This document shows positions 18,934 to 20,000 of a DNA stretch of 20,000 nucleotides, piece after piece. This stretch comes from Armatimonadota bacterium. Lineage in GTDB: Bacteria; Armatimonadota; Fimbriimonadia; Fimbriimonadales; Fimbriimonadaceae. The DNA lies in the NCBI GenBank assembly GCA_031400935.1, contig JANNQV010000028.1, positions 233,565-253,564 of the forward strand, written 5' to 3'. A program made the position numbers and the translations under genes. The notes below the pieces were generated by a model. The model ran no database searches and was not told the origin of the DNA. It saw nothing but the letters and a program-made list of their open reading frames with translations. Position 1 is the stretch's first letter. Every line of letters starts with the position of its first letter.

Positions 18934-18960
18934 AATGAGTTTGCCGTTCCAAAAGTTCCG
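18934..18960 (-). promoter_or_regulatory. Putative ECF-sigma promoter (autoregulatory) CGGAACT-N16-CATT
   Basis: Minus strand reads cggaact tttggaacggcaaact catt and points at the sigma gene. GGAAC is a typical ECF -35 element. Confidence 0.6.
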
Positions 18961-18969
18961 CAACGAGAG

Positions 18970-18996
18970 CGGAACTCCTTTTACCATTTTTGCATT
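18970..18996 (+). promoter_or_regulatory. Putative ECF-sigma promoter CGGAACT-N16-CATT for the Cys-rich gene
   Basis: cggaact ccttttaccatttttg catt has the same motif and spacing as the minus-strand copy. Confidence 0.6.
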
Positions 18997-19030
18997 TCCC
19001 CTTCGAAAAATGACTTTGGAGGTCAAACAA

Positions 19031-19405
19031 ATGAACAAAATCCTATTACTAGTAACCCTTTTCGCTTTCGCCATAGTGGCTGTTCCGTTCGGAATTGCCC
19101 AGACAGGAACGAAGAAGATGGACACAACCGCCCATGTTTGCGCGAAATGCGACATGGCTTCGATGAAGGCGGGCAAATGCCCTTGCGGCTCTGAAACTTC
19201 GATGATGAAAGGCCGTGTCGCCCATGTCTGTTCCCATTGCAACACATCTTCTAAGAAGGCTGGCAACTGTAGCAAGTGCAAGATGGCAATGAAGAAGAGT
19301 TTTGTTACCTATTCTTGCGATCATTGCAAAATGAGTGCTGGCAAGGCTGGAAACTGCAAGATGTGCAAGATGCCGATGAAGAAGCATGTCGTTCCGATGA
19401 TGTAA
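19031..19405 (+). CDS. Secreted Cys/Met/Lys-rich protein with three heavy-metal-binding-like repeats
   Basis: GGAGGT SD and a signal peptide. Three repeats of CxxC-x9-C(x1-2)C containing KAG[KN]C, 12 Cys in 124 aa. Confidence 0.8.
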   Translation: MNKILLLVTLFAFAIVAVPFGIAQTGTKKMDTTAHVCAKCDMASMKAGKCPCGSETSMMKGRVAHVCSHCNTSSKKAGNCSKCKMAMKKSFVTYSCDHCKMSAGKAGNCKMCKMPMKKHVVPMM

Positions 19406-19444: not shown

Positions 19445-19480
19445 GTAATGCCCAACTGCAAAGTTGGGCATTACGTTTTT
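19445..19480 (+). terminator. Intrinsic terminator-like hairpin between convergent genes
   Basis: Perfect 13-bp stem gtaatgcccaact/agttgggcattac, GCAA loop, followed by gttttt. Confidence 0.7.
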
Positions 19481-19500
19481 GCCTTCCTGACCAGGAAAGC
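19481..19500 (-). promoter_or_regulatory. Candidate bacterial SECIS hairpin
   Basis: Minus strand GCTTTCCT-GGTC-AGGAAGGC starts 14 nt after the TGA. The loop begins with GG and the hairpin is not followed by a U-tract. Confidence 0.5.
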
Positions 19501-19505
19501 TGGAT

Positions 19506-20000
19506 TTAGTAGGTTCAACCCCATGTAAGCGTCCCCGGTGCGCTGGAAAAGTCAATTTCGACCATTTTCATTCTAGCCGATTTTGCCATTGCCTCATTAA
19601 GCGCTTTGACGCTTTCTGCACCGTAGCCCTCGAACACTCTTTCGATTTTGCCATTGGTGCCGACCTGAACCGTCGTAATGGAATATCGCAACTTGTAGGC
19701 TCCGATTGCCGCCTTAGTTGGGTCAGAAAGAAGCGGATAGTTCACTGCGAACCGCTCGGTCCACGCCTTTGCTCCTTCGGAGTCAGCATTAACCACGCCA
19801 ATAAGCGAAGTTTTTTCGCCGTAGGCTTTTTGGAGCGAATTGAACAACGCCGAAGCCTTCGCATTGTGAGGGCATCTCTGCTTCCAAAACACCACGAACG
19901 CCGGCTTTTCTTTGGCAAGTTTTGCCAAGGAATACGTCTTCCCATCGGGAGCCATGCCCTCGATGGCGGGTGCCATATTTCCAGCCGGGAGATAGTTTTC
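19506..20000 (-). CDS. Peroxiredoxin-like redoxin (AhpC/TSA fold), 5'-partial; candidate selenoprotein with TGA 19515-19517 as Sec
   Basis: DGKTYSL, VVFWKQRCPHN and YPLLSDP indicate the redoxin fold. The frame is open to the window edge. It ends TWG-TGA-ACC-TAC-TAA; if TGA is a true stop the CDS ends at 19515. Confidence 0.8.

Follow-up and report, generated by a model that had tools for sequence, protein, structure and literature searches.

A redoxin family of Fimbriimonadaceae with a probable C-terminal selenocysteine and a SECIS-like hairpin in the 3' untranslated region

The question raised by this locus is whether the TGA at the apparent end of a redoxin gene is a stop codon or is read as selenocysteine (Sec), and what the protein would do if it is. 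The window, i.e., the whole stretch of 20,000 nucleotides analysed, forms the end of contig C28; the genome measures 2.97 Mb and is 95.6% complete. The redoxin gene is interrupted at the end of C28; its 5' portion lies on contig C13, and the two contigs overlap by 141 bases. The features referred to below are as follows.

19506..20000, minus strand: redoxin gene, 3' portion with read-through of the TGA (164 codons plus TAA; the start lies on C13)
19872..19874, minus strand: Cys codon of RCPHN (CxxN, its Cys corresponding to the first one of the thioredoxin CxxC)
19515..19517, minus strand: in-frame TGA, the proposed Sec codon (G-U-x-F/Y-stop), from homolog comparison
19506..19514, minus strand: Thr-Tyr and the true stop TAA, from the sequence and the tails of the TGA homologs
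19481..19500, minus strand: putative SECIS hairpin with an 8-bp stem and a GGUC loop, located entirely within the 3' untranslated region (folding, bSECIS model)
19445..19474, plus strand: terminator-like 13-bp hairpin of the convergent gene, separate from the SECIS hairpin (terminator scan)
18935..19405, plus strand: convergent gene; its small exported product has abundant CxxC repeats, Lys and Met (sub-cut-off zinc-ribbon/heavy-metal-binding matches)

As the sequence-only reading had described, the gene ends TGG GGT TGA ACC TAC TAA when read on the minus strand (TGA, 19517-19515; TAA, 19508-19506), and the protein has a single N-terminal Cys; the cysteine of RCPHN (codon 19874-19872) is the sole one also when the part from C13 is included. 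That part encodes a leader of 22 residues, basic at its start, with a hydrophobic core and no Cys. Judged by eye, this leader is signal-like. The protein is 183 amino acids long as annotated and would be 186 amino acids long with read-through. The TGA and its context were identical in contigs from four of four sequencing runs from three studies (one run is possibly the source of this DNA), so that the TGA is not an assembly error. The protein was assigned to the AhpC/TSA redoxins (Pfam AhpC-TSA, E 2e-14; Redoxin, E 2e-11; the search was performed with a 98% identical homolog).

Homologous loci were examined at the DNA level for the best 30 of each search and for 40 picked regions, which gave 140 distinct genes; identity to the first row of a 31-row alignment was 31-98%. 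Left out of the 140 genes were L139 and L170-L172, which have neither Cys nor TGA, and L145 and L146 of the phylum search, whose TGA-containing matches were rejected as plain stops of shorter proteins. At the column of the proposed Sec codon, 67 genes have TGA and 73 have a Cys codon, and TAA or TAG was never found in the 140 rows; the alignment of homologs suggested along with the original reading thus placed Cys at the TGA column and found the TGA itself conserved. The tail behind the TGA has exactly two residues in 61 of the 67 TGA genes, and its second residue is F or Y in 61 of the 67, while the true stop behind it is TAA in 29, TAG in 25 and TGA in 12 (one gene is cut by a contig end); that is, the two codons past the TGA are conserved while the stop codon varies. 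The Cys of RCPHN is invariant in the 31 aligned rows, and Asn follows three residues on in 30 of them. It had also been predicted that standard annotation would miss the Sec, and all 21 close database homologs do end at Gly; among the best 150 of 680 cluster representatives (50% identity), the C-terminus is Gly in 74, a Gly-Cys stands close to it in 69, and 7 show neither feature.

Several paralogs were recorded in the course of these searches. L139, L170, L171 and L172 are paralogs in selA-negative genomes; because they have neither the Cys nor the TGA of the C-terminal arm, some paralogs can do without the residue on the arm. Tandem Cys-only paralog pairs, one of CPCC type and one of CPHN type, are present in many genomes (L159-L163, L173-L176, L079). 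The genome of the window itself has a Sec-type paralog ending GGG-U-AF (L185; G000:C15:58612-59090), with a 9-bp hairpin whose GUU loop lies at 21 nt, and a third, Cys-only paralog with CPCS (C27:37069).

The hairpin behind the stop codon was found as originally described, with its loop 22 nt past the TGA and no U-tract; an A-rich sequence follows it instead, and the terminator scan did not flag 19481-19500. Its 48-nt piece folds with -11.0 kcal/mol (z -2.57, equalled by 1 of 200 shuffles), and the stem-loop alone with -9.5 kcal/mol. Note that the z-score of a longer fold spanning the SECIS region is inflated by the 13-bp hairpin at 19445-19474. Genes were compared under the bSECIS model (PMC13188914) with a script of our own, not with bSECISearch, with the following parameters: a perfect stem of at least 4 bp, a loop of 3-9 nt, a loop start 16-37 nt past the UGA, a G in the first two loop positions, and -7.5 kcal/mol or lower. 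The redoxin hairpin passes this model, and so do 61 of 66 TGA homologs, versus 4.1 from base shuffles; five of the 66 fail. Among the Cys genes, 6 of 73 pass (3/24 of CxxN type and 3/49 of CPC type). The loop starts 19-24 nt past the TGA in 64 of the 66 TGA genes, and a T-rich tail follows the hairpin in just 4 of the 66. The TGA genes have 62 distinct hairpin sequences, with at most six pair types per stem position (pair types were tallied gene by gene, since aligning the 3' regions as DNA with MAFFT left the stems out of register); C-G predominates in the three pairs below the loop, and the lower pairs are free to vary.

As for the background in this genome, a loose bSECIS-type hairpin was found behind 42 of 1141 TGA-ended frames (at least 150 codons), and a strict, family-derived model was passed by 4/1141 frames ending in TGA, 4/1056 in TAG and 2/864 in TAA; two of the four strict TGA-frame hairpins are those of the redoxin gene and of its paralog on C15. 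A single hairpin of this type, taken alone, is weak evidence, and the case for Sec, as far as it is made from sequence, is one of conservation across homologs.

All four genes of the Sec machinery, which the sequence-only reading had proposed to look for, are present in the genome: selA, selB and selD were all above their cut-offs, and tRNA-Sec (selC) scored 66.1 bits against a cut-off of 47 and was also called by ARAGORN. The selD gene carries its own TGA (CSG-U-ASK), followed by a hairpin with a GGU loop. A Sec-containing formate dehydrogenase was not found in this 95.6% complete genome with TIGR01591 (best match below the cut-off; 0 of 9 matches with an internal stop). In the family, selA was found in 94 of 151 genomes, and the TGA form of the redoxin in 54 of these 94, while in the remaining 40 it was not found at E 1e-25; it was present in 0 of 43 high-quality selA-negative genomes (these genome counts include related genomes, which are not independent of one another). 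For all 57 genomes without detected selA, TGA was found in 2 of 108 matches, and the two exceptions come from genomes that are 88% and 77% complete, both with tRNA-Sec and one also with selB. The redoxins of G089 and G115, which have no selA and no selB over the cut-off, have Cys at the column, and their same-genus sister rows (G122/G102 and G104) have Sec.

A quick tree was built without the Sec column and was midpoint-rooted. In it, the Sec label needs nine changes; a branch of 63 rows (support 97) holds the majority of the Cys genes, and individual Cys genes are nested among Sec genes, two of them from selA- and selB-negative genomes with Sec same-genus sisters. The direction from Sec to Cys rests on relic hairpins because the tree is midpoint-rooted. 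The three CxxN-type Cys genes that pass the hairpin model (L143, L055 and L148_2) have a family-type hairpin at 21-22 nt, and L143 is a close ortholog of the redoxin gene with the same GGUC loop and a Cys codon. The simplest reading of these hairpins is that they are relic SECIS elements left by a recent Sec-to-Cys reversion. At L148, a Sec gene and a Cys gene stand in tandem, and their hairpins are identical.

Outside the family, strong full-length matches among 301 genomes of the phylum (best 12 candidates per genome) were nearly confined to the family and its order; in the sister family, one genome has both a Sec gene and a Cys revertant. Two selB-positive genomes from other Armatimonadota families have CxxC redoxins ending G-TGA-GTRKP (L158) and G-TGA-GSKG (L178). 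These two lie on long branches in the quick tree, and one of them passes the hairpin model; the Sec arm may be older than the CxxN family, in which case the latter would have exchanged the second CxxC cysteine for Asn. A metagenome scan with one protein gave 26 loci with two close relatives, and two distant loci that were inspected were BCP-like with no tail. The ESM Atlas gave generic AhpC/TSA clusters only.

What the protein does was considered from its motif, fold and arm. The PxxxT/SxxC motif of peroxiredoxins is absent in the 31 aligned rows. In the profile match to ResA (E 1e-20), the redoxin Cys aligns to the first Cys of the ResA CxxC, and the CxxC of ResA/TlpA is not kept (CxxN in 30 of 31 rows). 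No NCBIfam model reaches its cut-off for the first member (PrxQ, 24.7 against 260 bits; ResA, 33.5 against 170; SelL-related, 20.5 against 120), and no model with a C-terminal Sec is among the 16 NCBIfam families matched by the 31 members at E 0.01. The AlphaFold model of a 98% identical homolog with Cys for Sec has a pLDDT of 96.5, with the tail ordered and included, and the two putative redox residues lie far apart in the sequence (Cys43 and Sec162 in model numbering), with no conserved Prx residues. Isolated beta-bridges at residues 106 and 163 of the model suggest pairing of the tail with the loop of cis-Pro type that adjoins the active site. Among the 50 structure entries listed, 2ywi, 3u5r, 2cvb and 2ywo alone cover the full length of the model (1-164; Z 16.1-16.8, rmsd 2.8-3.1, 151-152 aligned, identity 16-21%). 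We take these four to be PRX_like1 proteins, and 2ywi, 2cvb and 3u5r presumably carry a C-terminal Gly-Cys. Structures of the ResA/TlpA/DsbE type and AhpE match the core domain with Z 17-18.5 and rmsd 2.1-2.4; because these cores score equal or higher, the PrxL assignment rests on the arm. Searched against PDB sequences, the C-terminal arm gave no significant match and no PrxL alignment. By its motif, the redoxin looks like a protein of the PrxL/PRX_like1 type rather than a peroxiredoxin. The PrxL of Caulobacter (cd02969), an exported protein with a signal sequence, has two distant cysteines that pair in a disulfide, has none of the conserved Prx residues and is held reduced by ScsB (PMC3322552).

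A selenoprotein that is nevertheless a true peroxidase, in which the N-terminal Cys is peroxidatic and the Sec resolving, like an atypical 2-Cys peroxiredoxin, is the alternative that survives best, and we regard it as improbable. It would agree with the Pfam AhpC-TSA and JGI 'peroxiredoxin' labels, with the fold matches to Bcp and AhpE and with the weak NCBIfam PrxQ scores, and a selenol could reduce peroxides directly; against it, there is no PxxxTxxC, the Cys stands at the first CxxC position and not at the peroxidatic one, the PrxQ score is less than its cut-off by the wide difference given above, and the Caulobacter PrxL was without detectable peroxidase activity (PMC3322552). A role of the Cys/Sec pair in periplasmic metal or metalloid handling (binding or shuttling of Cu, Hg or As) in place of thiol-disulfide exchange is quite unlikely: the convergent neighbour at 18935-19405, exported and CxxC-rich with its heavy-metal-binding matches below cut-off, and the several selenoproteins tied to heavy metals by Haft & Gwadz (bioRxiv 2022.07.06.499078) would be in line with such a role, but this neighbour is not conserved beside the homologs, and the fold is that of a typical oxidoreductase.

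The alternatives to Sec decoding fare worse. That the TGA is an ordinary stop, so that this would be a one-cysteine redoxin ending at Gly with a hairpin acting as a terminator or mRNA-stability element, is very unlikely; the database proteins that end at Gly and the commonness of hairpins behind genes would fit it, but an ordinary stop would drift among TAA, TAG and TGA, which the column does not do, and the next two codons would not be conserved, yet x-F/Y-stop is kept. The rarity of T-rich tails behind the hairpins, the strict background of 4/1141 and the lack of the TGA form in 43 of 43 high-quality selA-negative genomes also argue against it. Reading of UGA as Cys or Trp, through genome-wide recoding or a Cys-tRNA with a UCA anticodon, is hardly credible in spite of the Cys at this column in homologs, since TGA terminates 1141 long open frames in the genome, the sole tRNA with a TCA anticodon is tRNA-Sec, and the TGA form tracks selA.

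The preferred reading is Sec decoding at the UGA combined with a Cys/Sec redox pair, which we consider highly probable, and the redoxin gene is in all likelihood a real selenoprotein gene. At the level of sequence comparison, four points are established: the Sec/Cys pairing at the column, the fixed tail, the hairpin at a set distance and the dependence on the Sec machinery; these support what had been inferred from the window alone, namely that the UGA would encode Sec. The best explanation of the product is that it is exported and works as a thiol/selenol oxidoreductase with a thioredoxin fold, belonging to the AhpC/TSA family and laid out like PrxL. SelB, bound to the hairpin just past the gene, would bring Sec-tRNA to the UGA, and two more codons would be read before the TAA, giving the C-terminus W-G-U-T-Y. 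The protein would be exported by its predicted signal peptide, the C-terminal arm would fold back onto the active site, and the Sec and the CxxN cysteine would cycle between selenol/thiol and selenenyl-sulfide. The oxidised redoxin could then be re-reduced in the periplasm by DsbD, as the Caulobacter PrxL is by ScsB, a step that we think fairly probable.

As for the roles of the two residues, Sec generally marks the catalytic residue. Cys/Sec pairs indicate catalytic redox cysteines (PMC2673044), and for this reason we lean to Sec as the attacking residue. With slight preference, we suppose that the Sec attacks an oxidised envelope substrate (e.g., a protein disulfide or a sulfenic acid) and that the cysteine resolves; the reverse roles, with Cys attacking and Sec resolving, are possible. 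The 'second redox position' at which the sequence-only reading had placed the Sec need not be a resolving one, and the Sec may be the attacking residue. Around the homologs no conserved gene neighbour was found (the commonest is shared by 5 of 49 loci), so that there is no genomic link to DsbD or to a substrate.

The sole DsbD match in the genome (L179:841-2790; G000:C45) comprises alpha and beta domains and a TGA-interrupted gamma domain, in which the in-frame TGA stands at the first Cys of the motif (FTGYT-U-TNC, i.e., UxxC). Such a TGA was found in 4 of 103 DsbD matches from 102 of the 151 family genomes, two in the genus of the redoxin genome (that genome and its congener) and two in another genus; selA and the Sec redoxin were found in all four genomes, and Cys is encoded at this position in the 28 other top DsbD loci. 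The DsbD hairpin is weak alone (z -0.3), and a similar one with a G-U loop is present in all four TGA-DsbD genes. The DsbD of the redoxin genome is thus a candidate Sec-DsbD, which is not listed as such in the table of the 2026 review (PMC13188914).

One might read the CxxN redoxin family as the principal way in which Fimbriimonadaceae put selenium to redox use in their envelopes. In this genus, the redoxin would stand last in a periplasmic electron relay fed by the UxxC-gamma DsbD, its attacking nucleophile being a selenol on the C-terminal arm, as in mammalian thioredoxin reductase; we regard this joint reading as doubtful but worth stating. If true, it would make the C-terminal Gly-Cys the catalytic residue of the PrxL-type proteins, to which no function is assigned, and would explain why Sec decoding is kept in a genome without a Sec-containing formate dehydrogenase.

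Six more long frames of this genome, all with signal-like leaders, contain an interrupting TGA accompanied by a hairpin of the strict SECIS-like type, some possibly by chance; none of the six matched the NCBIfam selenoprotein models. They are as follows.

L180, G000:C17:122684, context GGC-U
L181, C31:2369, context DCG-U
L182, C28:4435, context CPL-U
L183, C17:139611, context GHT-U
L184, C66:3577, context ETA-U
L187, C17:117966, context GDT-U

The 2026 review gives a table of 119 prokaryotic selenoprotein families, including those of Haft & Tolstoy 2025, and a CxxN redoxin with a C-terminal Sec is absent from this table, which a family described only in the running text of Haft & Tolstoy 2025 could escape; its AhpC/TSA and redoxin entries are TxxU, UxxC, UxxU, UGC, UxxS or CxxU, none of them is cd02969, and the text of the review as available to us has no mention of Armatimonadota (PMC13188914). 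A 2022 selenoprotein review, in the part available, is in agreement (PMC9312934). BSepDB took in Fimbriimonadia genomes but searched known families only (PMC13326102), and the terms for this family and lineage are not mentioned in the deep-Sep paper (PMC12013277). Our literature searches found no printed description of this selenoprotein family. Its significance would be, first, that the databases systematically truncate a large selenoprotein family (74 of the best 150 clusters), and that its lineage has been covered by catalogues with searches for known families only. Second, the position of the Sec offers a testable handle on the catalytic residue of PrxL-type redoxins. Third, because the SECIS lies outside the coding region, the 62 natural variants show the requirements of SelB free of coding constraints (a loop 19-24 nt from the UGA, a C-G-rich upper stem and a G-G or G-U loop), a set of use for SECIS prediction and for recombinant selenoproteins with a C-terminal Sec, and the Cys genes with relic hairpins are a record of recent Sec-to-Cys reversions. 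Unless catalysis by the arm or the Sec-DsbD relay is demonstrated, this is one more family among more than 100.

Among known systems, the PrxL/PRX_like1 proteins resemble the redoxin in their AhpC/TSA thioredoxin fold, in a single Cys at the first position of CxxC and in the lack of the Prx motif; they also carry an export signal, which is predicted for the redoxin, and have their second redox residue on a distant C-terminal arm, where the redoxin would have its own. The redoxin differs in that the second residue is here a putative Sec, three residues from the end, identity to the PrxL-type structures is low (16-21%), and the profile match stops short of the arm. ResA, TlpA and CcmG gave the best sequence and core-fold matches (E 1e-20; Z 17-18) and are exported, as is predicted for the redoxin, whereas the redoxin has CxxN for CxxC and an extra C-terminal arm of about 20 residues. 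ResA/TlpA/CcmG proteins are reduced by DsbD-type proteins. The selenoproteins already known in AhpC/TSA (Prx TxxU, Prx-like UxxC/UxxU, UGC-containing TlpA, UxxS, redoxin UxxC, Prx-SUH CxxU and SelL-related) belong to the same Pfam families and share SelB/bSECIS decoding; by their listed motifs, they have the Sec in the N-terminal active-site motif, unlike the present family, in which that motif keeps Cys and the Sec would lie on the C-terminal arm. The name UXX-star presumably stands for U-x-x-stop. In the UXX-star families (NF041114, NF041211 and NF041212), the Sec, often after Gly, is likewise followed by two residues and the stop, but Table 1 of PMC13188914 enters family 1 as distantly glutaredoxin-like, and 0 of 31 redoxin members matched these models at E 0.01; since their Sec is two residues before the stop, their SECIS must sit past the coding region. 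In SaoC and KCU-star, a bacterial SECIS with a 7-bp stem and a GGU loop lies past the true stop, as shown by sequence for SaoC, and the C-terminal Sec is overlooked by annotation pipelines, but the folds are unrelated and the motif is a Cys-Sec dipeptide (bioRxiv 2022.07.06.499078). Given the precedents of UXX-star, SaoC and KCU-star, near-terminal Sec and a SECIS past the stop are not new in kind, and no Sec form of the PrxL/PRX_like1 type is in the 119-family table (PMC13188914); what appears to be new is a probably exported CxxN redoxin family with a G-U-x-F/Y C-terminus and a SECIS in the 3' untranslated region, widespread in one bacterial family.
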